A stretch of DNA of 63,944 bases, filler included. It is 10 parts of 10 records of this genome, joined end to end, with 100 filler letters (N's around TTAATTAATTAA, not from the genome) between each part and the next. Parts side by side here need not be neighbours in the genome. Positions count along the whole stretch, not along the records: positions 8,585 to 17,722 come from SRR15195285_1267; 9 more parts are not named here. One strand, written 5' to 3'. Below are positions 8,485-60,804 of the stretch, piece after piece. Within the stretch, counting starts at the first letter, position 1. Each line of letters begins with the position of its first letter. The notes under the pieces were generated by a model that was not told where the DNA came from, searched no databases, and was given only the letters and a program-made list of their open reading frames with translations. Both the position numbers and the translations under genes were made by a program.

Positions 8485-8584
8485 NNNNNNNNNNNNNNNN
8501 NNNNNNNNNNNNNNNNNNNNNNNNNNNNTTAATTAATTAANNNNNNNNNNNNNNNNNNNNNNNNNNNNNNNNNNNNNNNNNNNN
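8485..8584. other. Artificial contig spacer (44 N + TTAATTAATTAA + 44 N)
   Basis: Identical 100-nt six-frame-stop linker recurring nine times in the window. Confidence 0.99.
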
Positions 8585-8685
8585 CGGAATTTTTGACGCG
8601 AGTCCGACTCATCGCGCCGGCGATCGAATTAGCCATGCCACCCTGGTGCCGTTATCGTTCCCCAAGATCGCCGGACGTGCCCCCT

Positions 8686-11600
8686 ATGGCCGCCATAGCG
8701 TTTGTGGTACACGCGTACATCTTGTGTGGTACCACCAGCGTGACTGCTGAGTCCACAGCGCTCGACCGGCGAACAGCGCGGGTGACGATGATCGGTACGC
8801 TGTGCGGAGGGGCATGCGCTGACCACATGGTCCTGGACCGCACAAACGCGACGGTGTGGGGAGTCGGGGCGATGGTTGGCGCAAAGATTCGCGTGTCGCT
8901 CGAAAGTTCGTCGCATGTGAGCGTCGGGGAGACAAGCGCGTGGGAGGTCGTCGTCAGCAGCGATGGATCGTGGGCGGTCAGCCTTGGCATCCAGAATGCT
9001 AGCACAGGGTCAACGCTCAAATTTTCAGGGAGTGACAACAGTACGGCCAGTTTGGTAGACGTCGCCTTTGGCGACGTGTATCTGTGCAGCGGGCAGAGCA
9101 ATATGTGGTTCCCCCTGAACGACATTGGCAACGGCACCGCGGTCGTCATTGAGGGCGAGACCCTGCACGACATCCGAGTCATGAACGTGAATCACCTGTC
9201 CGCTCCACAGGGCCCACAGTCGACCTTGAAATGGGGCCGCTCGTGGGACGGCACTGGGACATGTCCCCACCCAAACAGCTGCAGCCCTGCAGGCTGGTCC
9301 TCAATGACGAGCAAGCTTGCAGCGAGCTTCTCTGCTGTCTGTTTCCTCACTGGCCGCGATGTCTACCGTGGGCTGGGCGGCAAGGTCCCGATAGGTCTTG
9401 TCGAGGCAGCCTGGGGTGGGACTCGGATTGAATCGTGGACCTCACCTGACGGCCTGGCGAAATGCAGCGGCGACGGAACCGCCAAGTGCGGTCTGTGCTG
9501 CACAGACTCAACTAGCAACAGTGGTGGCTGGTGCAAGACACAACAGCCAAAAGGCTCTAGAGCATGTGCACGGATGAACTCCACAAACTCTGGGAATCTT
9601 TGCTCAGCAGCCTTCAACGGTATGTTGGCTCCGCTTCTACCAATGCGCCTAAAAGCAATGCTCTGGTGCGACACCAACGCATTCCTCATTTGTATAATTA
9701 TGAGCGCTCTGAAACACGGTAGATGAGTTGCATCCTAACATCTACACTTGCCTTGCTTCTGACTCGTGTGCAGGTACCAGGTGAGACTCCATCGGGACAG
9801 ATGAGTCCACAGTGGCATTTCGAGTTGAGATTATTGCGCTCTGTTTGCGTCTCGTGCTGTGTGCGTGTAATCAGGGAGAGTCAAATACGGACACCTTCCA
9901 GGGTACCCTCGCCGGCCCGGCCAACTACGCATGTCGAATGCGTGCAGCAGTGCAGGACTGGCGTGAGAAGTTCAAGTCACCAATGCTTCCCTTCTTCAAC
10001 ATCGAGCTTGCTGCATGCAGCAACTACCCGGACCATGCAGACAACGCAATTACGTGGGCTTCGATTCGACAGGCGTCGCGGTCGTTTCTTTCTCTTCCTG
10101 GCACGACCGGCTTTGTCACCACCATTGACCTTGGGATGGCGAATGGGGCTGTGCACTCAACTGTGAAGCAGCCAGATGGGCGGCGACTTGCGCTACAGGT
10201 GCTTCGCGAGGTTTATGGCGATCCGGTAACTGCTGTCGGGCCTTCTCTCACTTATCATAAGCCTCCGAACGGCACGGACGACACAAAGCATATGCTCGTA
10301 TTGGGCGTGTCACTTCTGTGCTGGGGCTGCTGGCCGACGCTGCGTCAGCTTTGCGGTGCACCGATCGCGGCATTTGCCACGCTGAACATTTGTAGCCAGT
10401 GCGCCACAAGCTTCGTGTATCTGTTTGCGCTCAGCACTGCTGGGACGATACCAAAGATCCACAAGGTACTGCACGATCCAACTTCGCGAGAGTTGTGTGT
10501 GTTTCTTGGTGAGACAACGCGAACTGCATATAGCGTGGCACTGAAGTAGATTGTGTTTCTCAACAAGCAGAGCTCCGTTGTTGTGGAAACTATTGAGTCG
10601 AGTAGCAAAACCAGATTATCAGGATTAAGGGTTTATGCTTGGGACAGGTGGGTTTCTTCTTGGTCATGCGGATCAGCTCAGTGCTACTGCGATGAGCATG
10701 CTCTCCGCTGCCATTGCCTACCCACTGTGCGCAGTCCAACTGAAGCAGCAGCAAAGCACAATCATGACCTTGTTCTAATATCTATCGTCCTGTGTTGTAT
10801 GCTCTGTATCAAACCATTTGCGTTAGCTATGCTGGGCTTGGGTTGATCATCGCACAGACTCTCAACTACGTGCAGACTGGTTCCGCTGCACCAGTCATGC
10901 TTTTCTGTGGCCTTGGTCTTGTGGGTCTCGGCCTTGCATTCCTTACGCTGACGCAATATGCCAAGGGTCAGCAGCATACGCCACAAAGCGACCCAAGGCG
11001 TCGAGGCGGAACCGACTCAGCCGACGATCGGCAAGCCAGCTTACCAACCGCGCCACTACTTGAAGGCATGCATGTGCAACAAGATTACCATCCCCTTCGA
11101 CAAAGTGGCGTCAAAGCGGGGCTGTCGACTCGCGGTGCCATGCTTGTGTGCGTGGTTGCTGGTATTGCCGGTGCAGGATGGTCGCCACTCTCCACGTATG
11201 CAAGGTCTGGTCAGCAAGGAACCTTCGCTGAGGTTGACCCTGTTCACGACGCAACAATCTGCCTCGTCGTGTTTCAAATTGGTCAGCTCTGTGCGCTACC
11301 TTCGATTGCAAATATCGGTGGGTGGCTCACAGGGACTGGCGTGGTTGCACCTATTCGCAACCTAAACTTAGGCAGTGCAGCATTTGGTATCCTATGTGGT
11401 ATATTTGTAAGCACAGGATACATGGCTTATTTTACTTCATCGGTAAGAGAACCAGCGATCCACATCTAGCAAATTCACTCAGGCAAGTATTTCAGTCCTG
11501 GCTACAGTATGACCACACTGACAAAGTTCTGCAAATGGATCAGGCATATATCTCACCAACCGTTGCGTTTGGCATTACGGCCTGCAATCCTGTCTTAGCG

Positions 11601-12419
11601 ATGATCATCGATGTGCTACGCTGTGAATTTCGTGGGAAATCGACAAAAGTCAAGGGCTTTCTTCTGCTCTCCATTTGTTCATATGGTGCAGCCATAGCCG
11701 TACTCTCACAAATCGCACCACAGCATGCGGGTCATTCGACAGGTGGTGCTGGCTACCAAATCAGCATGCCTACCGATCCGACGACTGGCAGGTCCACTGC
11801 GTCACTGTCGATGCCATTTCACAACGCCTACAACCTCCACGCTGCACCAGCGGCAGGTTTTCACTCTGCCGGATGCGAAGAGTCGCCGTTTGAGTTTGGC
11901 TGGGTAGAAGTGAACAGTGGCAAGACGTTTTGGCTGCATGCGAATTTCTCTGTAGCTCAGCTTGATGGCAACAGCGCGATTGTGATGCTGACGGGCCACC
12001 ATCCGTCACAGGTGTTGGCGGGTGGTGCACAGTTGCAGCTAAACGAAGTGCGCTATGCGTGGTCAGGTCAACCACAGTGTGTGCTGTACTCAGGCCATGG
12101 CTCCTATGCCAATGCATCTGCCCTGCCAGTAAGTACACGGCTGACATGCAAAAAAAGCGATTGCAGCTGCACCAGACCAGACACTCTTTTCTGTCTGCTA
12201 ACAGTGCTCTCGTTGCTGCTTTGCTTCCAGGCAGCCCCTTTTCGTGTCGCAGTCATGAGCTGCGCTGAGACGACCAAAGCCTGTTCGCTGGATGGCGTCG
12301 GCATAGGTGCAGACGTCGATGCAGTACAGTGCTGCAGCAAGACAGAGGAGTGCGTACCGTACGGTGGCTGCCAGGCAAAACAACCGTCCTCGGATGAGGG
12401 TATCAAGTCTGGCAGGTGA
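8686..12419 (+). CDS. Sialate O-acetylesterase (SASA/SIAE-like SGNH hydrolase) with an in-frame inserted ureide-permease/DMT-like transporter domain
   Basis: Esterase motifs: GDVYLCSGQSNM, FSAVCF, PIGLVEAAWGGTRIESW, WYQGESN (assembled across introns 9666-9773 and 9781-9874), DLG...VHSTVKQPDGRRLAL, and C-terminal VRYAW..P.C.LY...LPAAPFR. Transporter motifs lie at ~10292-11714. Other introns: 10509-10647, 10727-10826, 11443-11543, 12129-12230. Confidence 0.8.
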
Positions 12420-12840
12420 GGTCACATTCATGGCCGGCGCATTAATCCATCAACAAACGAGAAGTAGCGGCAAAACACACACTCCGTTCCACTTCTCCCA
12501 GTGCCTTTGCTTCGGTGTGCTTGCATTTTCGAGCCACGCCTGTAGCCTCAGATGGGTCGCTGGCGTCTCTTGGAGGCGTGCATAGTGCTACTAGTCACTG
12601 AATCACGCGTCTACCACGACTTCAAGAACTGCAACATACTGGGGTGCGTGTTCTGAATGCCTCGTAGAGCGGGCATGGCGCATGTCAAACGAATGGGTGA
12701 TGATGCATTAGAACATTTGTATCAGTTTTACTTTTCCCAAGAGCGTGTATTCGAATTCATCGCTTCTCCCAGGTGTGCGTGTTCACTGGCTACACTTCCC
12801 AGGCTAATACTAGTGATGACTGCATCCTGCGGCGTCCAGG

Positions 12841-15800
12841 TCATACATTAGCATGGTGCGACGGCCCTCGCTCCGCTGCTGCCTTCGCTTCAAACCCACA
12901 GTGCGCGGCAAACTCACTGCTCGGGCCGTAGTCGAAGCGCAGTTCGGTGTAGGCCTCAATGTGTTGTGCCGCGAAAAAGGCGACACTCGGCATCGTCGCA
13001 TCCATGTTCCCGCCGCAGAACACTTCAAAGCCAAGAATCCAGACTCTCAGGCATACGTTTGGACAAGGACAGCGAATCTACAGCAGCCGAACTTTCCAAG
13101 CGCGCAGACGAACACACATGCTGGGTATGTACAAATACTAGATGGATCGGTCGTGTAGCGCACCCATCTGCGCAAAGACGTTTGGAGAAGCTCCATCGTG
13201 ATTCAAGAATCGGCTTATGTTTCCTTTCTTCTTTGCGTCGATCACATACTCCGCGGCCGGCCAGGCATGTCGGACCGCAGGACTGCTTTCGAGTTCACTA
13301 TCGTGCACCTTTGATTCTATCTGCAACACAAGCTGATAGCTTGTATCGCTTTGGGCGTTCGCCTCTGCCCCGATCATGATCACAAAGTCAAGATGAACTG
13401 AATTGGTTCGTTTTGAAATGGCCAAGTGAGCAAGATCGACAGTCCACTCACCAGGGATAGTTAGAATCTCGCCAACATAGGTCGTCAAAAACGTGCCCTG
13501 CTCGATAGCGTTGCGGCACCACACGCCATAACCGCGCCCACCCTGGTCTACATGGCCAGTGTAAAACACCTCAAGGCCTTGGTGTGTAACGCCGTTTGTC
13601 ACCACTCGATTTTCGTACTTGGTCTCTGTTCCTCGTGGTGTTTCGATAATCACGTCTCTAGCATACCTGTAAAGTGCTCAAAAATGTCAAATGTGTCAAA
13701 CGATTGGTATTTTTCTTTGACCAGAGTGGGCACCGCAGCCTTCCACTGTCGTCGTAGCCTCTGCCAAGACCGTCCAACGAGTGTTGCAGCTCTTCGATAT
13801 CATGTGCTGGTCCGAGGAGCAGACTATCCTTGTCGGTGTGCTCTTTAGCTTCACCAACTCTCTCACTAGCGACTATGTACTCAAATGTGGCAGGTGGCAC
13901 TGGAGAATTGAAGGACAAGGAACAGAGCTTATAGCGCTCGAGTCCAGCTGATAAATCACCCTGCACACGAACGAGTCAGAACACAACTCATGTCGAGCTC
14001 AGCGAAAACATTTGCATACCTGTGATTGCGTGTGATCCCTAGGGTCCATATTGCTTGGATACAAACGTACCGATTGTTGTTTGCTCCACTCCAGCCGCTC
14101 AAACTCGATCGCAGGAACACACAGTGTGAGTGAGCTAACTGGCTCCCAACTTGTAGCTTCGTAGCCCTGCCACATAACTTCGTATTCAGCTGTGGTACCG
14201 AGCCAGCGTTTTCGTAGAATCTTCTCAACGAGATATTCCTCTCCTTCCTCTACCCCTACATTGACTTGCGCACTCGTTGCCATCTGAGCTTGAACCTGAC
14301 CAGTAGCGCTAGTGTGTGTCGATTGCTTTCGTTGAAAGCGCCGCCACGCGCTACTTATGCTTTTGTAGGTACGAACATCGTTTTTATCGTGAAATGCAGA
14401 GTTGAGCGCATCACTGATGGCAGTAGGCTTTGCTCCTTGCATCATCATCTCTCGTAGCATGCGGAACTCAGCACTGCTCCAGAACTTCCTAGGCGTAGCA
14501 GTTTTCGAGATATCTGGTACACTGTCGTTCCAAGTTTGTTGTTGGACACCTGGTGTGTCGCTAGCAGCAGTGTGACTGTCAGTTGTTGCCGGTAGCTGGC
14601 CACGGCGTAGGAACTTGCACGGGTTCTGGATGGACCCATCAGACTTCGGCCCCAGCGCACCAGTAGGCCACAGATCTGCAGCAGCTGATGATACAGTTGT
14701 GGTGTCGGCAGCCAACCCCAAGCATACGTGATCATCGTGCCTTGATGGCAGCGCAGCTACAGTGCCTGGCATTGTCGAGGACTTGTACCGAATTGCAGGG
14801 ACTGTTCCTTCCATTTCATTGTCAGTAGTACACTTGACTCGTTTCGAACCTTTTGGTACTGCGTGAGCTTTATGTCTGCCAACCAGTGACGGTGTCGCGG
14901 CCATCGGATGCGTTTTGTCCAGTTGCCCAAAAGGTAATACGATTGGCACATCATCTCGCGGGAAAAGGTCGGAGTAACCGTATTCTGTCATGCTCTTGTC
15001 GCTCCACTCGACTGTGTACCGATCGGGACGGGCGAATGATACAATCTGCCCAGCACATAGTGTCTCTGCATCCCGTTCATCTACCTGTGTAGATTCCACG
15101 CGCCAGCCAACAAGGCCTCTGCCCTCCTGTGGCCTGCTTCCATACTGTTTCCATACTGTTGCCATCAAAAGTCTGCGGGTCTGCTCGCGAAGACGACGTT
15201 CAGCACGTAAAGCTGTCTCTTTGGCCTTGCTCCCATGGCTACGAGCCACCAAAGCAGCTGATTTTGGAGTAGAAGACCATATTTCTTGCTCCAGTTTTCG
15301 CGGCGCCTGCCTTTTTCGAGTACTGGATGCACTGGTCGACTGACCCAGCGTTGCATGCTGGCCATGCCGCGTGGAACAAGTATGAATACCACGTTTGCTG
15401 CGACAAGCCTCGCACGTTATGTCAGCTTCCTTCTGCAGAGCAGCCTCGCGCCGCTTTTCTACGCGAACGCATGCTTTGCATGCTGCAGTCACGTTTCGGT
15501 CCATCCACACCTCTGCATCTTGTTCGTCTACCGGCCTTGCCGTAGAACCTACAAGCTTGTCAGTACCTTTGTTGAGCGTTTTCACCACCGTCGGTAGCGT
15601 GTCGCGAAGGTACGTTACGCCCAAGACGAAGTCAATGATGGGTCCGATACAATTCAGAAAGCTTTGCGTTCCTCTGCCACCTTCTGCTGGCATCAATCTT
15701 TCTTTTCCCATCTGTCGGTATCCAACCAGCACCACAGCTAGAGTCAACGAATGCGGTAGACTGCTTGTAGCCAGAAGCAATCAGGACGTTCTCACATCCA

Positions 15801-17388
15801 ATATTGTCTCTTCAGCAGGAGGCCACATCTCAACGACGCCGAATACATGCTTGCCCCACTTGGCTCCTATAGGGCACAATGGGATCCATGCTCAGCTAAC
15901 CACAATGCATGAGCACCACTTGGCTCCTAAATAAACTAATTGCATCGAAAGGCACTGTCTGAATGATTCAACTGGTTCCACTGTCTGTCTGAACAATAGC
16001 GTACCACCATCTGTTTTCATCCACCGTATTTTTTTCCCCGCGCTAGTAATGCCATGCTTCCATAGCTGTGTGTCTTCCCCTAGCGGGACGAGGGCACCAT
16101 TCACGTATACAATCAGACCGCCATGTTGAGTGGGGCCGAAATTGTCTCCAAGCAGCTCTTCACCAAATCGCCGGTGATGCCTGTTTTTGTCACTGCGGCC
16201 TAGTCGCAGGACCCCTTTGAATCCTTCACATTCGACATTAATATGCGAAGGATCGACGATTGCACGCGGGACGCCTAACACCCCGAGCTCATCCACCATT
16301 GGTGGCAATTTCTCATCAATACAGTCGTACAAAAATTGTGCACCACCTGGCTGCACAGCCTGGCCGTTCAGAAACAGGGTTGTCTTTGGGTCGGCGAGGA
16401 AGTGGCGAAGCCGTTGGCGAAGTGAGGTGACGTACAACGGGCAGTTGTTGTCTTTCCCGCCAGGAATAGCAGCACCGGAAGCGAGCGCGCTCGGGTGACA
16501 TCGCACATCATTGCCATGCAGGACGAATTGGCGGCAGGCCTCCGATGTTCCTTCTCGTCCTTCGGATCCGAAGTATACCATTCGCGTGCCTCTATTGCGG
16601 CCAATATGAGAAAACTGACCGGCGATGCCTTGGACTGATCGTGATCCTGGTGGTAGAAAAGTGAGCTGCACGCCACGGCGTGTGTTCAGTGAGAGTGCGA
16701 CTGAGAGGATTATCGTCGGCGCAGTGGTGCAGCGCTATCACGTTGCGAGACCCAACTCACGTGTGCGCATGTTTCGCGTATCATGTCGTCATGCGGCCCA
16801 TTTGCCCCCGTCCAGTCCGGCTGTCCGTGAGCAGACGTCCACACGAGTCTCTTTGCTGGCTTGCAAGTTCCGCTGCCGGATGAATCAGCGACGTCGAGCA
16901 GCAGGAGACAGTAGGTATGAAACCCTTCGTTGTGGACCGGGGAGATGGAAAATATTGCCAGCCGCGAGAAAATGTTTAAGCATGCCTTGGTTCCGATGCC
17001 GTTGTGGGAGTAGTTCCGCAGCACCTGAGCGTCAGTTTTGGCCGCGTGCATGCCGAACCGGATCGCCATTTCGCATTCCTTGGGGGTCATGCCAGCGCCT
17101 CGTTGCTCCGTAACGTGGAAACACAGCTCACTAGAGTCCAGGATACGCTCCATCACAACATCGACTCGCTCAGCCCGACCATGTTCTATCGCTGCGCACT
17201 CGAACACCATCACCACCACCACGAGCAGTCTGTGTCAGTAATGTGCTGGGCTGAGCGGCAGAACTGCTCTGGACCGCACCGTTGGCTATCGGCTCCAGCA
17301 AGCGCGAGATAGGGTTGGTGTGTGATTTCTGTCTGAAGAGGTTGCAGTCAACCAGCACCGGACACTCGGTGGCCTCCGCCGCGGCCAT
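12841..17388 (-). CDS. Chromatin protein: MORC-like GHKL ATPase + Tudor-like + Myb/SANT-like + chromodomain + SUV39-like pre-SET/SET
   Basis: GHKL-like LLEPIANAIEHG, RGAGMT, NGIGTK; S5-like VFGVVE. Tudor-like LVGWRV...GQIVSF...YTVEWSD. Myb-like WSSAE...RTYKSISSAW. Chromo EEYLVEKILRKR..EYEVMWQGYEATSWEP. SET NRVV..LEVFYTG..RGYGV, YVGEIL, IDAKKKGNISRFLNH, ELRFDYG. Phase-consistent introns include 16666-16760, 15867-16004, 15712-15795, 13961-14019. Confidence 0.75.
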
Positions 17389-17722
17389 TTTCCGACGGGC
17401 GAGAGGGCGAGAAGTCTACTCGGTCAAGTATTAATGGCACGTACTCAACCGCGTGTTCAAAGCCTGCGCACACTGCGTCGTGCGGACAACCCGGACCCGG
17501 ACGGACGGACGGCACGCGCGCGCGACCGCACATGCTCCATGCATCATACACCGGCCGCGCGCGCGGGAACTTTTACGTGCACCGCCATGCGCGCTCGCTC
17601 GCGCGCGCGTGCCAGGTACCGGTACCGGTGCAGCACGTTTACAACTGCGCAATCAGAATCACAATCAAAATTTCAGTTAACGTTCTGTTGTGTGGGTGCG
17701 CTGGGTGTGGGAGTAGCCGTTT

Positions 17723-17822
17723 NNNNNNNNNNNNNNNNNNNNNNNNNNNNNNNNNNNNNNNNNNNNTTAATTAATTAANNNNNNNNNNNNNNNNNNNNNN
17801 NNNNNNNNNNNNNNNNNNNNNN
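17723..17822. other. Artificial contig spacer
   Basis: 44 N + TTAATTAATTAA + 44 N. Confidence 0.99.
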
Positions 17823-18135: not shown

Positions 18136-20325
18136 ATGGCGCTCGCGCTGCTTTCGCTCGCCGCCGCCGCGTCGATGGACGTGGGGTTGCAGCACGTCAC
18201 CTCCGCCAGGCTGTCGATCAACGTGCCGACGGCGCACTCGGCCGCGGCGACGAGCCAGATTTTTAGCGATGCCTCTGGCACCGACACACGACGCTCACGA
18301 TCGGCGCCAGAGCTGCTGGTGATGAAGACAGACGATGGCCCGGATGGAGGAGGGGGTCGTGCCGGCTGCAACTGTACTGGCCGTCAGAACTATGGCAACT
18401 GGGCCAAGGCGCTGGGTGGCAAGCAGCACGCGCCCACCACGGCTGCGTGCTGCGCGATGTGCACCGCAAACAGCGCTTGCGTTATGTGGGAGTACGACCC
18501 TAGCGCAGGCGCGTGTTGGCTGAAGCGCGACGCCGGAGGGTGTGTCACCAAGCAGAGCCGCATCAGCGGAACCTGTGGGCGCTCACCGCAGCCGGGCCCG
18601 CCGCCGTCTCCGCCGCCGCCGCCGCCAAGCACGATCGAGGTGGATGTGAAGCTGGACGTCACGGGCGCACCCATTGCGAAGACTGCAACAGAGGGTTTTG
18701 TTAGCTACTGCCTCGACTGGTGGGCGCCGCAGCAAGGGGCAAGGCCTGAGGGCTGGGGCAGCCACGCGAACATCCTCGAGATCGATTTCAACTCACCCAA
18801 GCTGCAGGCGCTTGTGCGGGCGTTGGGGCCTTCCTACCTGCGGATTGGTGGCTCGCTGGACAAGGACGTGATCTACAAAATGCCAGGGACAACGGAGCCA
18901 TGTCCGACTAGCAGCGAACGGGGACCAGTGGCCCCAGGTGGCCTGTGCTTGAACACATCACGGTGGGACGCGCTTCATGCCTTCGCAAGGGCGACGCAAA
19001 GCAAGGTCGTGTTTGGACTGTCTTATCCTCAAGTTGAAGCTGGGCCGGATGATGCTGCGAGTGGTATAGGCAGCGGGCTATGGAACTCGACACAGGCAGA
19101 AGCGCTGTTCGCATACTCGAAGCAGCGGGGCTACACACCCGAGACGACACTCTTTGGGTTTGAACTTGGCGAGGAACTCACTGCCTTCAAGGTTGGCACT
19201 GGAGCCTTCAGGAACTATGTGGAATCATATCACCGTGCGGCAGCGCTGCTCAAGAGTGTATTCGGCGGCACATCTACCACCTCCAGCACGACGGAGGCAG
19301 GGGCAACGCAGCAGGTGGTTGCGACTAGTGACGACGGCGGGGCTGCTGCTATACCCAAACTTATGGGCCCCTGCCCTGGTATGTCCTGGCCTCAGCTCGC
19401 TACTTGGTTCCCAGACTTCCTAAAGGGCACGGCTGGAGCACTCGACATCGCTGTATATCACTCCTACAACCAGATCCAGCCGGAGCCACCGCGTCGGGTT
19501 CTTTTCCTCAACGAGACGCCGCCCTCTGGCAGCGTGGCAACGCAAAAGGGTGCCTCAGCAGGGGGCACTGGCTGGCAGGGTAAGGCAATGGCAGGCTATG
19601 CGAAGGATGCGGGTGTCCCTGTCTGGCTTGGGGAAGGCGGGCCGCACAATGGAGGTGGCGGCGGGGAGTATGCAAGCACCTTCGTGTCGAGCTTTGGGTA
19701 CATGGATACCCTGGGGACACTCGCCGCGTTGAATCACTCCGTCTTTGCGCGGCAGACGCTAGTGGGGGGAAACTACGAGCTTTTGCGCTGCAGCAGTGGC
19801 CAGACGGCAGGGCCGCAGCCGGGCGCTGGCTGCGACTTCGAGCCACACCCCGACTACTGGATTGCGTTGTTCTGGCGACGGTACATGGGGCCAGTGGTGC
19901 TCTCACCACCTCTGCTCAGCCCGCTCTCTGCAGAAGCTGCGCAGTACGTGCGGATGTATGCGCACTGCACCCCTCCACCCTCCTCAGCCAGCAACGTTAA
20001 CGCCGGTGGTGGTGGCAACGGCTCTCTGACGGTTGCGTGGGCCAACACCGCCGACAGCGTGACGTTTCGTATGACCCTCCCACAATATCTCTGGTCGCAG
20101 CCTCGACAGGAGTACCATCTCACTGCTGCGAATCGCAGCGAAGGCTTCGGGAGCCGCACGCTCTCCCTCAACAATGGATCCGCGCTGACGGTTGGTGATG
20201 TGGGGGAGTTGCCACCGCTGCTACCGCGTGGACAGCCGCCGCTCCCGCACGGGCTGGTGGTTGCGGAGCCGGTCTCGGTGGGGTTCGTGGTGTTTCCTGA
20301 CGCGAAGGTGCAAGCCTGCATGTAG
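18136..20325 (+). CDS. Secreted heparanase-like glycoside hydrolase family 79 with N-terminal PAN/Apple domain and Pro-rich linker, intronless
   Basis: Signal peptide; PAN-like CCAMCTANSACVMWEY...CWLK; GH79 motifs LDWW, YLRIGGSLDK, CLNTSRWDAL, FELGEEL, WLGEGG, RQTLVGGNYELL, PHPDYWIALFW. Confidence 0.88.
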   Translation: MALALLSLAAAASMDVGLQHVTSARLSINVPTAHSAAATSQIFSDASGTDTRRSRSAPELLVMKTDDGPDGGGGRAGCNCTGRQNYGNWAKALGGKQHAPTTAACCAMCTANSACVMWEYDPSAGACWLKRDAGGCVTKQSRISGTCGRSPQPGPPPSPPPPPPSTIEVDVKLDVTGAPIAKTATEGFVSYCLDWWAPQQGARPEGWGSHANILEIDFNSPKLQALVRALGPSYLRIGGSLDKDVIYKMPGTTEPCPTSSERGPVAPGGLCLNTSRWDALHAFARATQSKVVFGLSYPQVEAGPDDAASGIGSGLWNSTQAEALFAYSKQRGYTPETTLFGFELGEELTAFKVGTGAFRNYVESYHRAAALLKSVFGGTSTTSSTTEAGATQQVVATSDDGGAAAIPKLMGPCPGMSWPQLATWFPDFLKGTAGALDIAVYHSYNQIQPEPPRRVLFLNETPPSGSVATQKGASAGGTGWQGKAMAGYAKDAGVPVWLGEGGPHNGGGGGEYASTFVSSFGYMDTLGTLAALNHSVFARQTLVGGNYELLRCSSGQTAGPQPGAGCDFEPHPDYWIALFWRRYMGPVVLSPPLLSPLSAEAAQYVRMYAHCTPPPSSASNVNAGGGGNGSLTVAWANTADSVTFRMTLPQYLWSQPRQEYHLTAANRSEGFGSRTLSLNNGSALTVGDVGELPPLLPRGQPPLPHGLVVAEPVSVGFVVFPDAKVQACM

Positions 20326-20875: not shown

Positions 20876-22939
20876 TCAGATGCTCTTTGCCTTACGGGAT
20901 ACCAGCATGGCGGATGGGCCTTCCGCAGCAGCAGCCTCGCGACAAAGCTTGTAGGAGAGCCACCAACACCAGTGAGTGCCAATCGCGCACACAACCTGTC
21001 ACACCAAGAATGAATGCAACGAGACATGAGTCGCCGCAAACAGTGCAGTAGTAGGTCTTTGAGTTGAATTGGCCGAGACGCACCGAGTACGCAAGCAATG
21101 GTAGAAATGGCAACCGTTCACTGAGCCCCGGCCTACACATGAAAAGCACGCGTGGGCCGAGCTCCGCAACCAGCCCCTGTGATAACGAGAGAACGAAGAC
21201 CAGCAACCGACAAATGCAAGCATCAGTGTACGGGACAACTAAAACTGCTCAGAGGGTTGACAGAGCGAGGGGACTACGTACAGCAGTCAGAATGTACAGC
21301 TTTTCAAACCACGCAGCGGAGTCCCACAGCGGCAAGGAGCGTGGAACCGCGAGCATCAGGGCAAGATAGGCCAACCAGGTGGTTACCTTCCAGCTCCACT
21401 CGGGGGATGTATGCACTGCAGCAAACACGCAGAGAGTCTGAGAACCCGCTCTAGACGACCGAGGGCGTACACTGCTGCGTGGCAAGAAATAGAACGTTGT
21501 CGCAGTCTCGCGGAAAATACTCACGCAAAGGAAAGAGCGACAAATGTCCAGTCATGGAAAGTAGCAAGAATAGTCTGTATGCCGTGGTGCTCCTTTGGCC
21601 TCTGGCATCGATGCTGCCTAGCGCAAACACCAACGGCGCGAGCGGTACCGTTGCCATGAGAACTGCCTTCTCGTGGACATGCCATGACAGCATGAAAAAG
21701 CAGAAACTAGAGTAGATGAGGCAAGCGGCGAACATGCGCTGAGATGGTCGACGCCACAGCTTTGCCATCGCCGGGAGCAGTGTCAGTCCGACCAGCGCAA
21801 GCGTGCGGCCCGGAGTGATGTTCGGTAAAAAACGGTGCGCGTCGCCGTCGTGAACCAAGCCACCAGTGAAAGATGGCCCGCTGCCCGCAGCGGCAAGCGG
21901 CACCAGCGACGACAGAGCTGCAGGAAGTCGGCTATGGAGCACTATCCCAGCCTTGTCAGCGAGGTTGTACAGCGCCCAAAAGTTGGGAGCCCAGTATGCG
22001 TGGCATAGTCCTCGTTTAAACGGGAACAGGCGTGCAAGGATCTGCGGCAGCTGCTCCACCCCACCGAGCACAAGGTACGGCCCGAACGAAAGAGCGCAAA
22101 CGAGGCAGACAACTGATCCAAGGGTCACGAACCTCATCAACGAGAACATGGTCGGCACGCCGGCCAGAGAAGCGCCGCAACAGTACCCGCGCAAAAGGTA
22201 CACGAACACTGCCGGCACGAAATAGAGAAAGATGTGCTTGAAGTTGAGCAGCGCGGCGAAAAGCGCCCCGCCCACCAAGGGATTAGGCTTCGGCCCGAGT
22301 AGTTCTCCCAGGCAGCAGAGGAGCAGCGCATACAGCACCCCATTGTACTGAAAGTGCACGTGGTCGACAAGGAGCAGCCCAGGGTTGCAGACGGTGAGAG
22401 CCACAGCTAAGGCCTGGTGATTTGGAGCATCCGGATACAGCCGGGTGCAGAGCCGGGCAGCGGCAGCGGCCAGCGCGCAATCCAGAATGATCACGCTGAG
22501 ACGCTGAAAGAGCACGGTGCCAGCCGACGCGTGCCCCAGGTTGGACACCACCAGCATCTCTGGATCGAACAGCATCGCGGGCCACGAGAGCCCCCACTCC
22601 ATTGCAGCGAAGAATGGTGGGTAGTCCAGCGTCCATTCGGAAGTGTCCTCAAAGTACCAGCGCGAGAGTGGCAATGAGTGCGTGATGGCCAGCCAGTTGC
22701 GATGAACCTCAAAGTCCGTGCTGTGGTACCTGCAGGGGCGACGGAGCAGCAGAAGTCTCGGATCTCAGAACGATTTCTCCGCGTCTCTGCTTGAACGATT
22801 GTACTGGCATGGCATTAGCTGACTGGCTGGCAACGAGACTACAAATTGGGGTACGAATGGGCACTCACCCTGGGATGAGGAGCAGCTTAAGGACGCTCAG
22901 CGCTACAAACAGCGCAGCGGTGGACTGCCGTGCGAGCAT
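20876..22939 (-). CDS. ALG8: Dolichyl-P-Glc alpha-1,3-glucosyltransferase ALG8, multi-exon
   Basis: YHSTDFEVHRNWLAITHSLP, SEWTLDYPPFFA, VDHVHFQYNG, RLFPFKRGLCHAYWAPNFWALY, WHVHEKA. Predicted last exon ends KAKSI*, a KxKxx ER-retrieval motif. Confidence 0.93.
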
Positions 22940-23129: not shown

Positions 23130-23229
23130 NNNNNNNNNNNNNNNNNNNNNNNNNNNNNNNNNNNNNNNNNNNNTTAATTAATTAANNNNNNNNNNNNNNN
23201 NNNNNNNNNNNNNNNNNNNNNNNNNNNNN
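23130..23229. other. Artificial contig spacer
   Basis: 44 N + TTAATTAATTAA + 44 N. Confidence 0.99.
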
Positions 23230-30677: not shown

Positions 30678-30777
30678 NNNNNNNNNNNNNNNNNNNNNNN
30701 NNNNNNNNNNNNNNNNNNNNNTTAATTAATTAANNNNNNNNNNNNNNNNNNNNNNNNNNNNNNNNNNNNNNNNNNNN
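30678..30777. other. Artificial contig spacer
   Basis: 44 N + TTAATTAATTAA + 44 N. Confidence 0.99.
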
Positions 30778-36290: not shown

Positions 36291-36390
36291 NNNNNNNNNN
36301 NNNNNNNNNNNNNNNNNNNNNNNNNNNNNNNNNNTTAATTAATTAANNNNNNNNNNNNNNNNNNNNNNNNNNNNNNNNNNNNNNNNNNNN
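36291..36390. other. Artificial contig spacer
   Basis: 44 N + TTAATTAATTAA + 44 N. Confidence 0.99.
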
Positions 36391-43586: not shown

Positions 43587-43686
43587 NNNNNNNNNNNNNN
43601 NNNNNNNNNNNNNNNNNNNNNNNNNNNNNNTTAATTAATTAANNNNNNNNNNNNNNNNNNNNNNNNNNNNNNNNNNNNNNNNNNNN
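43587..43686. other. Artificial contig spacer
   Basis: 44 N + TTAATTAATTAA + 44 N. Confidence 0.99.
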
Positions 43687-49197: not shown

Positions 49198-49297
49198 NNN
49201 NNNNNNNNNNNNNNNNNNNNNNNNNNNNNNNNNNNNNNNNNTTAATTAATTAANNNNNNNNNNNNNNNNNNNNNNNNNNNNNNNNNNNNNNNNNNNN
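49198..49297. other. Artificial contig spacer
   Basis: 44 N + TTAATTAATTAA + 44 N. Confidence 0.99.
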
Positions 49298-49382: not shown

Positions 49383-52300
49383 TCATTTCTCGAAGCGAAT
49401 CGCCACGTCATCCACTATGGCGGCAACATTCGCAAACGGCACACTGCGCCTGAAGTGAGTGCGCGCCTGGATCGTGAGTTCGCCGCCGCCGGTCTCGAGA
49501 AGCCAGCCTCCTGGTCCTTGATGGCCGAGGTATCGCGAGGCAAACACTGCTAAGCTCGATCGCGTCCTGACCGTGAGTAGCTTCGATGGTTGCAACCGCC
49601 ACATCCATCGATGCAAATGGACATGAAGTGCTGGTAAGGTTAGTCAGATGAGAAGGTGACACAACACGATATTGGCTCTCTCATTCCAGTCCGACTTTCA
49701 TTCATAGTCGCGTCGTATCGGCTCGTCGAAGCTTACCGGTATGCCGAGAAATCCAGCCGAGCAGTCGGCGTCGTCGACCCTAGACCCGAAAGCGAATCGA
49801 TGGCACCAGCACTTCTCACAGCCTTCCGGATGCTTCGTTTAGCGTTCCCTGCCTGCAATGCTGCCAGCCGGGACGGATTCGTTCCTGAGAATGCAGGTAG
49901 GGGCTCGCCTGAGCGCAATTTCCGCACGCCAAACTGCACCCAGCCCTCCAGAAACTCGTTGTTCCCTAAAATCTGACTACCCGCGGAAGTATTTGGAGTA
50001 AACCCTAGCCGATCTCGCGATAATGGGGTGGTGATTCCTGGAGTAGGTCCGCGCGACGGCGTTCGTCCATCGGTTTCTTCAGAAGGAAGAGGGCCAAGCA
50101 GAGGGTGGACACTGAGCTGTTTGCTGCGATTGGACGGCAGCAGGTTTTGGAACGGATCATTCGCGCTGTCCAAACGTTTTTGCTCACCGGTTGGAGTGCG
50201 CTGACTATGTACCATCCCTATGCGTGACGTTGGCGCATCATCAGTCTCGGGGGGTAGTTCTACATCTGTGATTGTAACACCGCCTCGACCAGTCGTGGAA
50301 ACCGTGTACTTCTGGCCGTCCAACTCAACCATGATGTTATCACCCTGTGATCCCAGCACGCCACAAACTTCACCTGTCCACTCACCACCAGTGATCTTGA
50401 CATGCTTCTTCGCACGCTCCGCTGCTAATTTTCGCCCACGCTCCGCTCGTTCCGTCTCCATCTTCTCCTGCTCAACTCTGCGAATATTGTCTTCATTCAA
50501 TTTGCGCTGGCGTTCTAACGTCAGCTGGTATCGGCTGCCACGTTCCTCCGGGTATCGTTCGAAGATCATCTTCTCATATGAAGCCGAGATATACTCGTTC
50601 GACGGAGAGGAGCAAATTAAGCGGTTGGGCCTATGCTCTAGGTCAGGAATGCCACGACGCCAGCCATCTACGAACACACCGAGCTTCTTTCCATCCCTCA
50701 GCAGCTCGGGCTTGTGCTGCGGTACAGAACATATCAACGGTGTGATTCATAGAAGTACATTGGCCAACGGATGCTGCACAGGTTAGCAATGAAATGTGGG
50801 TGTCCTGCTTAGGTAAAGTGGTTGCACGCACGGATGATCTCCAGGACTTCTTTGCGCGCTGCTGATGTTCCTCTTCAGCCTTTTCCGACTGCCGCTTACG
50901 ATCTGCCGCTGTCAACCCGTCAGCGAGCGAGCTATTTCTGGACGGAGAAAACAAGAATCGCATCGTTTGTGCAAATGCTGCGTCGAGACATTTTTCTCCT
51001 GCTAGTTTTGCTGCATCTTCAGCCACGATCCGATCTTGTTCCTCACTGTGCTTACGTTCTCGGTGCTTGCGCGCCTCCATCAGAGCATTCTCTGGGACAA
51101 TCTTTGACCGTGTGGCCTCATCAATCACTTGCTGTGCCTGCTGCAGCAACAAGTACATCGGCTCCCGCCGCCTTCTCCAGCCGTGCTTACCCATCGCCTC
51201 AGTTTCCTGAGCAAGCTCATCCATCTGATTCACCAGCGTTGCAACCTGTGTCTGTAGCTGTTTGAGTGCGCGCGCTTCTGCGTTCTTCGCTGCTTTGATC
51301 CGTACCTGCGTCTCGGCTACCACTTCTTGCTTGCACAAATTGTTGGCCTGGTATCGATCAAGCACGGCCTGCATCTCACTGGCGAGCACGCACGTGTCGA
51401 GCTCTTTGCGGTGTGTCTCCACAACAGCTTCTGCTCCTTCTTCGGTGGCCTTAGAGAACAATGCCCACCCAGCTGTCCCTCGCAGAGAGTCCTCATTCTT
51501 GTCTGCAACGGTATGAATCTCCGCGACTAGGTTGTTCATGCCCGCTAGCAAATTGCTTGCCCTCCTCATCTGCTCGGCAAACGCCCGATTTGCCGCTTGA
51601 AGTTCATCCTCTGCAGACATCGTCTGTCGTCTACGGCGTCGGCGATCGACCATTGTCCGCGCTTTCCGACTGCGTGTAAGTGCCTGCAGCGTCACCACCT
51701 GATTTCGCATCTCAGCACTTTCTTTACGTACCCGCCTGCCGCGTGTGGCAGCCTGCAGACGAATCGCAGCCGCCTCTGACCCAAGTGACGTGCGTGACTC
51801 AGCCTGCGTCTTAGCATCTACAGCCCATAGAGGCGTGTTCGTGCCTCCTGCTAGAAATACGAGCGAGTCATCTTCTGACTTGACTGCCGCCAGCAGCACC
51901 TCATCACGGGTCTCTGCAGCAGATGGTGGTTTCCTCCGTACCACCTCGGCAGTCCGTGCGCTGCCAATCCACTTCTGCCACACGGGTGTAGTCGTGGTAC
52001 CGCCTGACTCCTGCTGCGCGTCGCTGACCACCTCGACCCAGCGCTCCGTCGTTTCGTACGACACTCGTTTGCGTAGCTCTTTACCTGCTGCCTCGTGGTG
52101 TGGCTCCAGTTTCGTCACTTGCCGATACAGCACCACGTGACGCTGGAACCGCAGATCGGCTTCGGAGAGCAAAGAGCTCACGTCTCCCGGGGTGTACAGG
52201 ACTGTCCGAATGTCATAGCCTCCGCCGTGTGCATACTGGTCCTGCAAGAGGTGCACTGTCTGAGCGGCACGCTCTACTCGCACACTCACCTCATTTTCTT

Positions 52301-55300
52301 TCTTGTCATCGGTAGTGTTGTGCCAGCCTACTTGCACCTGCACTTTGCCCGCATACGCACCTGTCTTTGGATGGTGCAGGTCACACCACACAACGCCTGA
52401 GTTCCAGTGCCTAGGTCTGTCCTTTATCATCATCACACTGGAACCTATCTCTAGCAGGTGCAGTCCGATGAGGGTATCACCTGCTGGGTCGTCATTCCAC
52501 AGCTCAATTCCGAGCGATGGCGGTGCATCTGCCAAATGAAACTGCACAGTTTCGCCCATTACTTGGTTCCATTTCTCGGCGACGCCACAACCAACTCCCC
52601 ACTTAGGCTGAGAACCACCTCGTGTCACAGTCGACGTCTTACGATCCATAGTATGACGCCGGAAAGTAATCTCATCGAAGCCCTCTGCTCGAAAGCGCAC
52701 ATAAGGGCTATTGCTGCCGACAGTGTTGAGGTCTGTCCACAGAGCAGTTTTGCGCAGATTGACGGCCTCGAACACGGTCGCGTCCAGCTGCCAGGGCTGA
52801 CCTGCCCCTGCTGCAATCGCATGTGACCACCGAAAAGTCAGCCGAATCTTGCCGCCAGTCTCCTTTCGTCGACCATACTGTCTCCGTGCTATATCCCAGC
52901 CCCTCCCTACGAACTTTCCAAGCGAAAACCAGCCGTTATAGACACTGTCCTCTTCTTCCTTGAGGCAGATACCACGAGGATCATCAAGGCTAACGTCCAC
53001 AGTGCCTAGCAAAGTCTCCTGCTGGGCACCATTCTCGTGTGTTCTCCGACTGCAGACATGGATACGCGCTTTTGTCGGAAGCACCGTCCCAGATGCAATC
53101 GCCTTCAGTGTGCCTTGCACTTTGAGTTCCGCCTCCATTGACTCATCGTCTCTGCCCGAAAGCCGTGCGAGTGTGTCCATCATCGCCGAAGCCTCAAAGC
53201 GAGAAAACAAGTCGGTGGTGGCCCCTGTGACGTCCTTCATCCGCTGCTGCGTTAGCCACCATTGTGTAAACTCCTCCTCGTCAATCGTGCCTCCACAGTC
53301 ATCGTCGATGTGCCGGAACACGTTTTCAGCTGTGTCGCCATCAATTTCAACACCCATGGCTAGCATTGCGCTCTTAAATTCACCTATGTCAAGGTTTCCC
53401 GAGCCGTCCTCGTCTATCGAACGGAAGACCTTCTTAATTTTGGTGGCTGTGTTGGCAGTTTGACGATGACACTCTGCAATCTCTTCTTGGACCCACCGGG
53501 CAATGGCCCATTTTCTACTGGCTGGGCTCGAGCCCACTGCAAGTTGCAAGTTGCACAGACATAAGAGGATAGAAACAAGAGGAAATGAGCAGCCGTTTGC
53601 GGATGAGAAGAGCTGGACATCTAGATTCCGTACCAGGAGTGACGCCCTTTTGTTGCACGTCAATGAACGCCACCGTTTGCCCTGCTCCATGACGCCACAC
53701 AGGGTGGCCAGACGAGTGTTTGACTGCATCCGTCTCTCGCGACTCTCCCGCGCACATCACTTTGACATACACTTCTTCATCGTCACGATGATCGAGCCCA
53801 CTGCACTCCAGAACAGACACGAAGAATGCACGTTGCTGGGCTTCCCCAGCCGTTTCGACCTCGAGAATTTGAGAGATCTTGTTTTTAATCAACAAGCCTT
53901 TCATGCTCTCTCGTAGCCTCGCTTCCACTGCAGTTGTTTTCAAGGCACCACTGCCAGCTTCCAGCTCGAACATTTCCACTACCTTGTCGACATCATCCTG
54001 GCCCTCGCCCTCTGTTGTTTTTTTCATTTCCGTCTTCAACTTGCTCAACATCTGGGCTGTCGAAAGTGCGCTCAACTCGGCCCTCAGAGAGCTCACCAGC
54101 ACGTGCTCCTCTTCTTCTTCCTCTTCGACCTCAACAGGTTGCCACATCATCCGCACCAGCAGTGTGCCTGCCGGCTCGCCATCCCCATCTGTAAGCTCCA
54201 CCCACTCGTCCGCTGTCCAAGTGTCAAAACCCAAGTTGCGTTCCGCGTTCCACCGCGCAAGCATGTGCCCGACGTCGCATGCGCCTCGCGCGATCAGCAC
54301 GTGTTTCGATGCATCATCCAGATCTCTCGCGGCGTCCAAAAGCTCGACAGCGAGAGTTGGTGGCGGCTGTGGCAGCTCAAACGGGGCAACGAAAAGCACG
54401 TTGTCGCCATCTGGGCCCCAATCGACCTCCGTATCACCTTCGCTCGTCGTACTCCGCCGGCTGTAGAGGGGCACATCAAAACCTTCCACAAAAAATGCTG
54501 CGTACGCTGCAAAGGATTCGTGCGTGTCGTCCGATGTTCCCTCTCCCGCTGGCTGCGTCTCTGCACCCTCTGTTTTAAGGTCGGGCCCAGCCTCTGCCTT
54601 GAGCGCTGTTCCTGTTGGTCTGGGCAGGTCAGAGGCGTGCACCACCGTGGTGTGCAGATAGAACTGTCGCCGACTCGGGCGGAACGTCGTGCCTTTGTAC
54701 TGAGTCCTGTCGCCATCCCGACCTAGGTTGTTTCCCCAGCGTACAAATAAGCGCAGCTCGCCGCCGTTCCGCCCAACGGGTGTCCGAAGCGTATACCAGC
54801 CGACTGTGCTCCAGTCCGTGCTGCTGCTCAGCTCCTCGAGCAAGATCTCACAAGCGCCCAGTGTCTCTTCCTCACCAGTCAAGATCTCGGCGCGCAGAGA
54901 GCGAGGAGGCGGCAGGAGCGTCTCGCGGTGCTCCTCGTGCGGCACGAAGGTGAGTGACTCACCCGCGAGTTTGTACCACATCGCCGCAGCCGCGCCACAG
55001 TTCCCCACAGCTGCTGCGCTCGTGCGGCGCTGTGCTTCGGCATGCACCCACCCCTCCGCACCCTCCACATCCATGGCGACGCTCACAGTCTCGGCCCCAG
55101 TGCTTGCAAGGGGCTCCCCTTCGCTGCGCAAGCCACGAACTTGCAGCGCAGTGACGAGCAGCGAGCGCTGCCCAGCTTTCAGCGGACCGTTCCGATACGC
55201 CATGCTGGACACAAATCCCTGTCTGTGTCACCCTCCCGCTCAAATCACTGCGGGAACTCTCCCATGTACAATTCACTGCAGTGCTCCCCGTCACTCTCCT

Positions 55301-55499: not shown

Positions 55500-55599
55500 N
55501 NNNNNNNNNNNNNNNNNNNNNNNNNNNNNNNNNNNNNNNNNNNTTAATTAATTAANNNNNNNNNNNNNNNNNNNNNNNNNNNNNNNNNNNNNNNNNNNN
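55500..55599. other. Artificial contig spacer
   Basis: 44 N + TTAATTAATTAA + 44 N. Confidence 0.99.
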
Positions 55600-60704: not shown

Positions 60705-60804
60705 NNNNNNNNNNNNNNNNNNNNNNNNNNNNNNNNNNNNNNNNNNNNTTAATTAATTAANNNNNNNNNNNNNNNNNNNNNNNNNNNNNNNNNNNNNNNN
60801 NNNN
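60705..60804. other. Artificial contig spacer
   Basis: 44 N + TTAATTAATTAA + 44 N. Confidence 0.99.

Follow-up and report, generated by a model that had tools for sequence, protein, structure and literature searches.

We have studied a window of 63,944 nucleotides (nt) of eukaryotic DNA from an uncultured marine protist, with about 55% G+C, and have found in it a gene, here called W, in which a whole multi-pass transporter is inserted in frame inside an O-acetylesterase. The gene lies at positions 8686–12419 on the + strand, in a contig which occupies positions 8585–17722 of the stretch. When it is read from the DNA and spliced by script, its seven exons form one open frame with 1029 codons. 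The order of domains is a signal-peptide-like N-terminus, a SASA-type O-acetylesterase, a transporter insert of 379 amino acids (aa) and the C-terminal domain of the esterase. The insertion had been proposed in a sequence-only reading of this stretch; it is real, and it is conserved across three lineages. W is probably a true gene from which a single fused polypeptide is made.

The features of the gene are given below. Part of them are based on RNA, which comes from eight marine metatranscriptome runs with parts of the gene, four of which were compared; their contigs have a low depth.

8686–9665, + strand: exon 1, with the start codon, the N-terminal beta domain and the first SGNH blocks (the GQSNM serine block and the AWGGT block)
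About 8686–8754, + strand: hydrophobic, signal-peptide-like N-terminus, with a hydropathy peak at aa 1–19
9666–9773, + strand: intron 1, GTGCGA..CAG, 108 nt, required to join LW with YQGESN
9774–9780, + strand: micro-exon GTACCAG, 7 nt, which supplies W-Y-Q of the invariant WYQGESN block
9781–9874, + strand: intron 2, GTGAGA..CAG, 94 nt
9875–10249, + strand: exon 3, esterase part, with the GESN block and the D and H blocks; its last residues are ...VYGDPVTAVGPSL
10250–11726, + strand: the insert, 1477 nt in the genome and 379 codons when spliced (aa 455–833)
10250–10291, + strand: linker 1, 14 codons, inside exon 3 and upstream of transporter helix 1
10250–10508, + strand: exon 3, transporter part, with linker 1, helices 1–2 and the beginning of helix 3
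10509–10647, + strand: intron 3, GTGAGA..CAG, 139 nt, set by homology; ELCVFLG/GFLLGHADQL fits the family
10648–10726, + strand: exon 4, from helix 3 to the beginning of helix 4, set by homology
10727–10826, + strand: intron 4, GTGCGC..TAG, 100 nt, which joins AIAYPL/YAGLGL as in the family
10827–11442, + strand: exon 5, helices 4–8 and the central loop, covered by contigs from RNA runs
11443–11543, + strand: intron 5, GTAAGA..CAG, 101 nt, whose removal is seen in RNA
11544–11726, + strand: exon 6, transporter part, with helices 9–10 and a short tail ...SQIAPQH
11727–12128, + strand: exon 6, esterase C-terminal domain, AGHSTGG ... SPFEF ... VRYAW ... ALP
12129–12230, + strand: intron 6, GTAAGT..CAG, 102 nt, which joins ALP/AAPFR as in all relatives
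12231–12419, + strand: exon 7, the cysteine-rich tail, with the stop codon at 12417–12419; the related contig L004, described below, terminates at the equivalent place

All six introns are of the GT..AG type and have lengths of 94–139 nt. The two junctions between esterase and transporter fall inside exons: the first one within exon 3 (...GPSL ends at 10249) and the second one within exon 6 (...IAPQH ends at 11726). There is no stop codon at either of them. The esterase parts on the left and on the right of the insert are found in different genomic frames (those of 9785 and 11238) and the frame is restored only after removing the three introns of the insert, so that the continuity of the esterase is not a trivial read-through. 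The spliced frame of 1029 codons thus confirms what had been proposed, namely three introns in the insert and both junctions inside exons. The exon borders proposed at 10465 and 10629 have been replaced by 10508 and 10648, on the basis of homology to two stand-alone transporters, P0013 and P0004.

In the N-terminal part of the esterase the continuity of the frame stands, but the 7-nt micro-exon had to be added to the model. No other piece brings back the frame together with the invariant WYQGESN block. With its flanks (AG/GTACCAG/GT) it is identical in L001, a copy of the gene which has no insert and is described below. Introns 1 and 2 differ from those of L001 by insertions and deletions (indels) which are not multiples of three. 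No spliced RNA was found for intron 1 or for the micro-exon among the contigs listed. X3 record 15 is unspliced at intron 1, X1 record 5 at intron 3 and X1 record 8 at intron 6. The latter intron is in frame and free of stop codons: gene callers read through it, as in P0076, and its retention would add 34 residues before the conserved AAPFR.

Each junction is spanned by an independent assembly. A contig from an RNA run, X1 record 4 (10161–10311), is continuous across junction 1. P0076, an independent JGI gene call which is 99% identical to W, spans junction 2, from the transporter part of exon 6 into the esterase. X1 record 7 (11697–11872) has just 29 nt on the left of junction 2; this is below our rule of 31 nt and it has not been counted. 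The junctions are therefore not an artefact of assembly. Misassembly, which had been named as a way in which the proposal might fail, is not borne out, as both junctions are also present in two other lineages.

The RNA contigs give further information. Intron 5 has been removed in X5 record 21 (joint 11441 to 11543, GT..AG with the cut at +1, 50 nt on the shorter side), which indicates that the transporter part is expressed and spliced. Environmental contigs from the RNA runs show 19 differences: 13 of them are synonymous changes in third position and six are non-synonymous. The synonymous changes include position 10267, in linker 1, and position 11765, shortly after junction 2. Stretches 8600–9001, 10610–10743 and 12486–12600 are not covered by RNA.

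Judging from their conserved residues, both the esterase and the transporter look functional. We will start with the esterase. Pfam SASA (PF03629) has a gathering score of 24.8 bits; W was scanned as single unspliced exons only, and gave 22.1 bits with exon 1 and 19.9 bits with exon 3, each of them slightly below that score. Three relatives of about 600 aa which have no insert (P0001–3) reach 52.8–71 bits. One of them comes from the choanoflagellate Diaphanoeca grandis (EukProt), which is the closest named relative of the esterase. A profile of these relatives matches the solved sialate O-acetylesterases and the carbohydrate esterase FI8 (9h4u, 9ega, 7kmm, 8f9o-r) over profile positions 16–518 of 557, with E-values from 2.7e-143 to 4.4e-78. 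For W the word sialate is only a family name.

W carries the SGNH catalytic blocks (the GQSN serine block, GG, GESN and D..H). It retains 45 of the 48 columns which are invariant across nine family members; the three changes (G88S, V350I and G486V in the numbering of P0001) are outside the catalytic blocks. The identity with P0001 is 48–68% upstream of the insert (48% over 294 aa in exon 1, 68% in the esterase part of exon 3) and 31–44% downstream. The esterase C-domain in exon 6 has an identity of 94% with L001 and of 44–51% with P0001–3. The insert is found after ...VTAVGPSL and before the C-terminal domain (...SPFEF...VRYAW...ALPAAPFR) with its cysteine-rich tail. Since all catalytic blocks precede it, the insert parts the catalytic SGNH portion from the C-terminal domain and leaves the core uncut.

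The insert has homologues along its full extent in a small family of membrane proteins of 360–490 aa which stand alone. A phmmer search with exon 5 gave 53 relatives among 1.84 billion representatives. The identity of the insert is 57% with P0004 and 54% with P0013; the closest named relative of the transporter is a Picozoa single-cell assembly. Among 20 stand-alone relatives 27 positions are conserved in at least 90% of the sequences, and the inserts of W and of L004 each keep all 27. The family has conserved motifs GGFxLGHxD, WSPLST and GQ..A.PS. The stand-alone relatives have their own start 5–70 residues before helix 1, and 18 of the 20 end within about 20 residues past helix 10. ENA metagenome contigs often carry a further stand-alone lineage (P0073, P0075 and P0012; 12 cluster members), which likewise begins with a start of its own ahead of helix 1. 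The gene calls made for it do not recognise an in-frame intron that follows helix 3 and translate it.

An AlphaFold2 model of P0013 (pLDDT 87.8, pTM 0.85) has ten long helices, divided by a disordered loop at residues 164–190, and the insert of W aligns across all ten of them. In W the loop between helices at this central position is long and charged. Hydropathy at a threshold of 1.4 marks helices 4–10 of W; helices 1–3 are below the threshold and have been placed by alignment with P0013 and P0004. In a Foldseek search with the model of P0013 the best 34 ranks are all DMT chains, with E-values from 2e-4 to 1.5e-2: they include LicB (7paf, E 2e-4), SLC35B1, YddG (5i20), TPT, nucleotide-sugar transporters and PfCRT. 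The TM score by query is 0.45–0.59 for DMT chains vs 0.22 at most for unrelated folds. The model thus supports a DMT fold for the insert.

The position of the insert within the DMT group is less precise than had been proposed. Its motifs had been likened to those of the ureide permease branch. The neighbourhood is correct: the DMT fold agrees with it, and the nearest clusters in the ESM Atlas (scores 0.94–0.96) are labelled Sugar_transport/TMEM144/RhaT/Ureide_permease, with the Ureide_permease label on 11–99% of their members. Membership in PF07168 does not hold, as the scores are below threshold. None of six exon pieces of W matches Pfam Ureide_permease (PF07168, gathering score 27 bits) and P0004 has no Pfam match at E ≤ 1. 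Among ten stand-alone relatives, six have sub-threshold matches to Ureide_permease, TMEM144 or EamA; four of the ten have them with Ureide_permease, at best 22.6 bits. No member of the transporter family which we examined (P0004 and the ten relatives) reaches a Pfam gathering score. These transporters form a small unnamed DMT family, with Sugar_transport (GlcU), TMEM144, RhaT and Ureide_permease as its closest neighbours.

The same domain order had been suggested as something to look for in related protists, and we have found it in two further lineages, with the insertion in the same place: contig L004 and protein P0078. L004 (1–3316) encodes ...ADGPTLA, an intron, a linker of 14 residues, ten helices, the esterase C-domain and a stop. 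It has 12 modelled GT–AG introns vs four in W across the shared stretch (window positions 10150–12419). All 12 keep the frame from GPTLA through the ten helices into the esterase C-domain and the stop. None of the three insert introns of W occurs in L004, which is uninterrupted at ...FTSSAYISP, the site of intron 5 in W. Such a difference in introns, at 79% identity in the transporter, implies a large intron gain or loss among related protists. No ATG precedes helix 3 in the transporter part of L004, and the first exon of this part, which begins 116 nt beyond the esterase exon, opens in phase 1. If all transporter exons were skipped, phase 1 would meet phase 0 and the frame would shift. P0078 is a partial sequence with 11 member sequences from two sources, 76% identical to exon 6, which covers helices 4–10 and continues into the esterase C-domain. 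There is no stop after helix 10 in W, L004 or P0078.

In a tree of the transporters with 20 stand-alone relatives, the inserts of W, L004 and P0078 group together as a clade with a support of 100/99. In a tree of the esterase C-domains the same three form a clade (98/96) with respect to the three esterases which have no insert. Taken together, both clades indicate one insertion event. The sequences point to a fusion which arose once, when a stand-alone transporter gene would have been inserted into an esterase loop after ...GP(S/T)L.

The contig L001 has 91% DNA identity with the window, introns included, over positions 8664–10248 and 11726–12377. It lacks exactly the 1477 nt in between and reads ...GPSL/AGHSTGG... 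The same form is found in P0077, which comes from another source. Indels between W and L001 are multiples of three in 3 of 3 cases in exons vs 1 of 6 in introns. The breakpoints of L001 are not GT..AG, so it is not a spliced copy. In the tree of esterases L001 is found beside W, inside the clade of insert-bearing genes (93/95). At positions 3199–3477 of L001, past ...GGCQ, the frame continues for 93 codons up to the end of the contig, with a final run of serines; this tail has no match in the window and belongs to no Pfam family. The surroundings of L001 and W are thus not the same. An exact loss of the insert in the lineage of L001 would explain its form; alternatively L001 is a paralogue which gene conversion has kept alike.

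The topology of the transporter has been derived from the distribution of lysine and arginine (K+R) in 20 family members. The mean K+R of loops 1–2, 3–4, 5–6, 7–8 and 9–10 is 1.59, 0.30, 6.45, 1.85 and 1.33; in loops 2–3, 4–5, 6–7 and 8–9 it is 1.21, 0.45, 0.30 and 0.20. It is also low at both ends of the transporter. This bias places both ends on the non-cytosolic side and, with the ten helices in the model of P0013, it agrees with the ten transmembrane helices and the non-cytosolic termini which the earlier reading gave as predicted for plant UPS proteins. Plant ureide permeases, as described in PMC10489999, have ten spans and a Walker A motif in a cytoplasmic central loop, in agreement with the topology derived from K+R. 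By eye we found no Walker-A-like G-x4-G-K-[ST] motif in the central loop of W. All eight N-x-S/T sequons of W fall in the esterase parts or in linker 1. From the K+R bias, the signal-like N-terminus and the sequons it follows that both esterase parts may lie outside.

It had also been suggested that the two parts of the esterase could associate again. We have looked for it in the Diaphanoeca esterase P0001, which has no insert, cut at the equivalent place (27–432 and 433–606). The predicted pair has an ipSAE of 0.87 vs 0.01 for the best of three controls; among solved complexes 51 of 78 attain the mark used for ipSAE, and among mismatched pairs 2 of 108 do so (in eukaryotes 39 of 65 and 2 of 126). 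At least 80% of the contacts are common to the runs, and the partner pLDDT is 78 or higher. The predicted interface includes residues 389–396 and 402–411, adjoining the D and H blocks, and 426–435 around the cut. Re-association is thus predicted for P0001, but it may reflect a memory of the full-length homologues which have been solved (9h4u, 9ega, 7kmm, 8f9o). The prediction shows the C-domain as an integral part of the fold; it does not show that the protein of W reassembles.

Gene structure, conservation, folds and a compatible topology are thus established for W, and the following course may be proposed for its product. By means of the signal-peptide-like N-terminus, the N-terminal beta domain of the SASA-type O-acetylesterase and its SGNH catalytic domain would reach the far side of the membrane. 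Ten passes through the membrane would follow, forming an intact transporter of DMT fold, from the sugar-transport/TMEM144/RhaT/ureide-permease group, with its beginning and its end both non-cytosolic. Translocation of the esterase C-terminal domain and of the cysteine-rich tail would come last, and these would pack onto the catalytic domain. The outcome would be an ecto- or lumenal deacetylase held by two flexible linkers above the outer face of a permease. We infer that the enzyme may act on sugars outside the cytosol (on the surface of the cell or inside a digestive vacuole) and remove their O-acetyl groups, and that a product may then enter by way of the permease. A coupling of deacetylation to uptake is purely our inference. 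Only tentatively can we picture an enzyme which is wrapped round the transporter, in which the re-formed deacetylase caps the outer mouth of a sugar-type permease and its product passes straight into the pore; the ten-helix module would then be a removable cassette, inserted once into a surface loop and lost exactly in L001 without harm to the enzyme.

Several observations weigh against a single fused product. Intron 5 provides the only splice joint among the RNA contigs listed, and none of these contigs is a spliced message which passes from esterase into transporter or back. At least four of them (X3 record 15 and X1 records 3, 5 and 8) retain intron sequences, so the RNA runs contain DNA or pre-mRNA; continuity across junction 1 is therefore no proof of a fused mRNA. 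At 10292, immediately upstream of helix 1, W carries an in-frame ATG from which a product with the transporter plus the C-domain could be made. L001 and P0077 have no insert, so the esterase works or has worked without it. The topology has been derived from hydropathy and the positive-inside rule. The two trees conflict within the insert-bearing clade: W joins L004 in the transporter tree and P0078 in the esterase tree, but these are small trees with short branches, and P0078 is a partial sequence. Finally, no fused protein above 490 aa appears among the 53 phmmer hits, and a search for longer proteins with exon 3, which was a weak search, found no fused protein among nine hits.

The alternative which survives best, although we find it unlikely, is a nested gene with alternative products: the insert would be removed as a large intron or skipped as a block, to give a soluble esterase, and an internal promoter with the ATG at 10292 would serve to produce the transporter. 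Orthologous esterases without insert are the rule (P0001–3), the insert-less L001 has 91% DNA identity, and the ATG lies right ahead of helix 1. There are also 14 in-frame GT/AG combinations around the insert, and the RNA data are too thin to speak against a skip: a skipping joint was not found among the RNA contigs listed, but with their low depth this absence carries no weight. On the other hand esterase conservation (VTAVGPSL) reaches 10249 and the homology of the transporter begins 14 codons further on; a stop codon for the transporter is missing in W, L004 and P0078. In L004 there is no ATG before helix 3, and a skip of its transporter exons would not keep the phase. In L001 the breakpoints are not GT..AG. 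The candidate donors in W (GTTTAT, GTAACT, GTCGGG, GTATTG, GTGTCA, GTCACT and GTGCTG) are unlike the six donors in use, which are GTGCGA, GTGAGA (twice), GTGCGC, GTAAGA and GTAAGT. A skip from 10226 to 11723, which had been put forward as a source of a soluble isoform, would remove the conserved VTAVGPSL and would use the atypical donor GTAACT; its joint is not seen in the contigs listed and we have rejected it as the main product.

It is slightly less probable that the fusion is real and the transporter is a mere membrane anchor, so that the protein would be a tethered esterase. Transport is only a predicted function, the esterase of the relatives works without an insert, and tethering by itself could be the benefit which was selected. 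However, the inserts of W and L004 keep all 27 conserved positions; between these two genes the transporter is more conserved (79%) than the esterase C-domain (62%), and a single helix would suffice as an anchor. An assembly chimera or a decaying pseudogene, in what is a fragmentary single-cell or metagenome assembly of about ten short joined contigs with the gene beginning 100 nt from a contig end, is very improbable and largely refuted by the independent assemblies of both junctions (X1 record 4 and P0076), the two other lineages, the intact frame, the 13 of 19 polymorphisms which are synonymous and the conserved residues which have been kept. We thus maintain the reading of W as one gene with one fused product.

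The rest of the window is made up of other contigs. The stretch contains about ten of them, with lengths of 5–9 kb, joined by linkers of the form 44 N + TTAATTAATTAA + 44 N. It is not one molecule, so the order of genes across linkers is meaningless. A tblastn search found no second copy of the esterase or of the transporter inside the window. The linkers are found in the following positions:

8485–8584: linker between contigs
17723–17822: linker between contigs
23130–23229: linker between contigs
30678–30777: linker between contigs
36291–36390: linker between contigs
43587–43686: linker between contigs
49198–49297: linker between contigs
55500–55599: linker between contigs
60705–60804: linker between contigs

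Other long open reading frames, on other contigs, are found at 296–2026 (−), 18136–20325 (+), 21451–22764 (−) and 50643–53756 (−). Their Pfam matches are COesterase, Glyco_hydro_79n, ALG6/ALG8 and EF-hand domains.

Domain insertions are common among soluble proteins. A literature search found no described protein with the split architecture of W, as the earlier reading had stated. The SASA esterases, which are secreted or periplasmic (PF03629; 9ega, 7kmm, 8f9o-r and FI8 9h4u), have three parts like W: an N-terminal beta domain, SGNH and a C-terminal domain. They also have the same GQSN, GG, GESN and D..H blocks and a C-domain which ends in ...VRYAW...LP..PFR. However, they are single soluble chains, whereas W has a membrane domain of 379 residues with ten helices after ...GPSL. 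The stand-alone DMT relatives (P0004, P0013, P0015, P0017 and others, with 360–490 aa) share with the insert of W the ten helices, the charged central loop and the motifs. Unlike W they have their own start and a stop right past helix 10, and there is no esterase fusion among the 53 hits.

A comparison can also be made with CASD1 (PMC4510713) and the bacterial AT3-SGNH acetyltransferases OafA/OafB (PMC7448272). They are described as having, like W, an extracytosolic SGNH domain which acts on sugar O-acetyl groups and is joined covalently to a multi-pass membrane domain. As described there they are terminal fusions to acyltransferase-3 domains and add acetyl groups; W differs from them by its DMT transporter, by the insertion inside the enzyme and by an SGNH part which belongs to the esterase (SASA) family. 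We found no Pfam match to acyltransferase-3 or MBOAT at E ≤ 1 in the exons of W, in P0004 or in the ten relatives. An enzyme fused to a membrane domain is thus known; what appears to be new in W, as far as its sequence indicates, is the insertion of a whole transporter inside an enzyme.

Should W yield the predicted protein, this would be of interest for how the translocon deals with a chain in which a lumenal domain is followed by ten helices and by another lumenal domain which has to dock onto the first one, and for whether an ecto-esterase and a permease can be coupled within one chain. The presence of insert-bearing and exactly insert-less forms at 91% DNA identity bears on the origin and reversion of such genes. 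An enzyme wrapped round its transporter, if true, would be a eukaryotic single-chain form of channelling between an ecto-enzyme and a permease. The gain and loss of the insert would also provide a proof, rarely offered by nature, that a folded soluble enzyme can accept and release a polytopic membrane domain.

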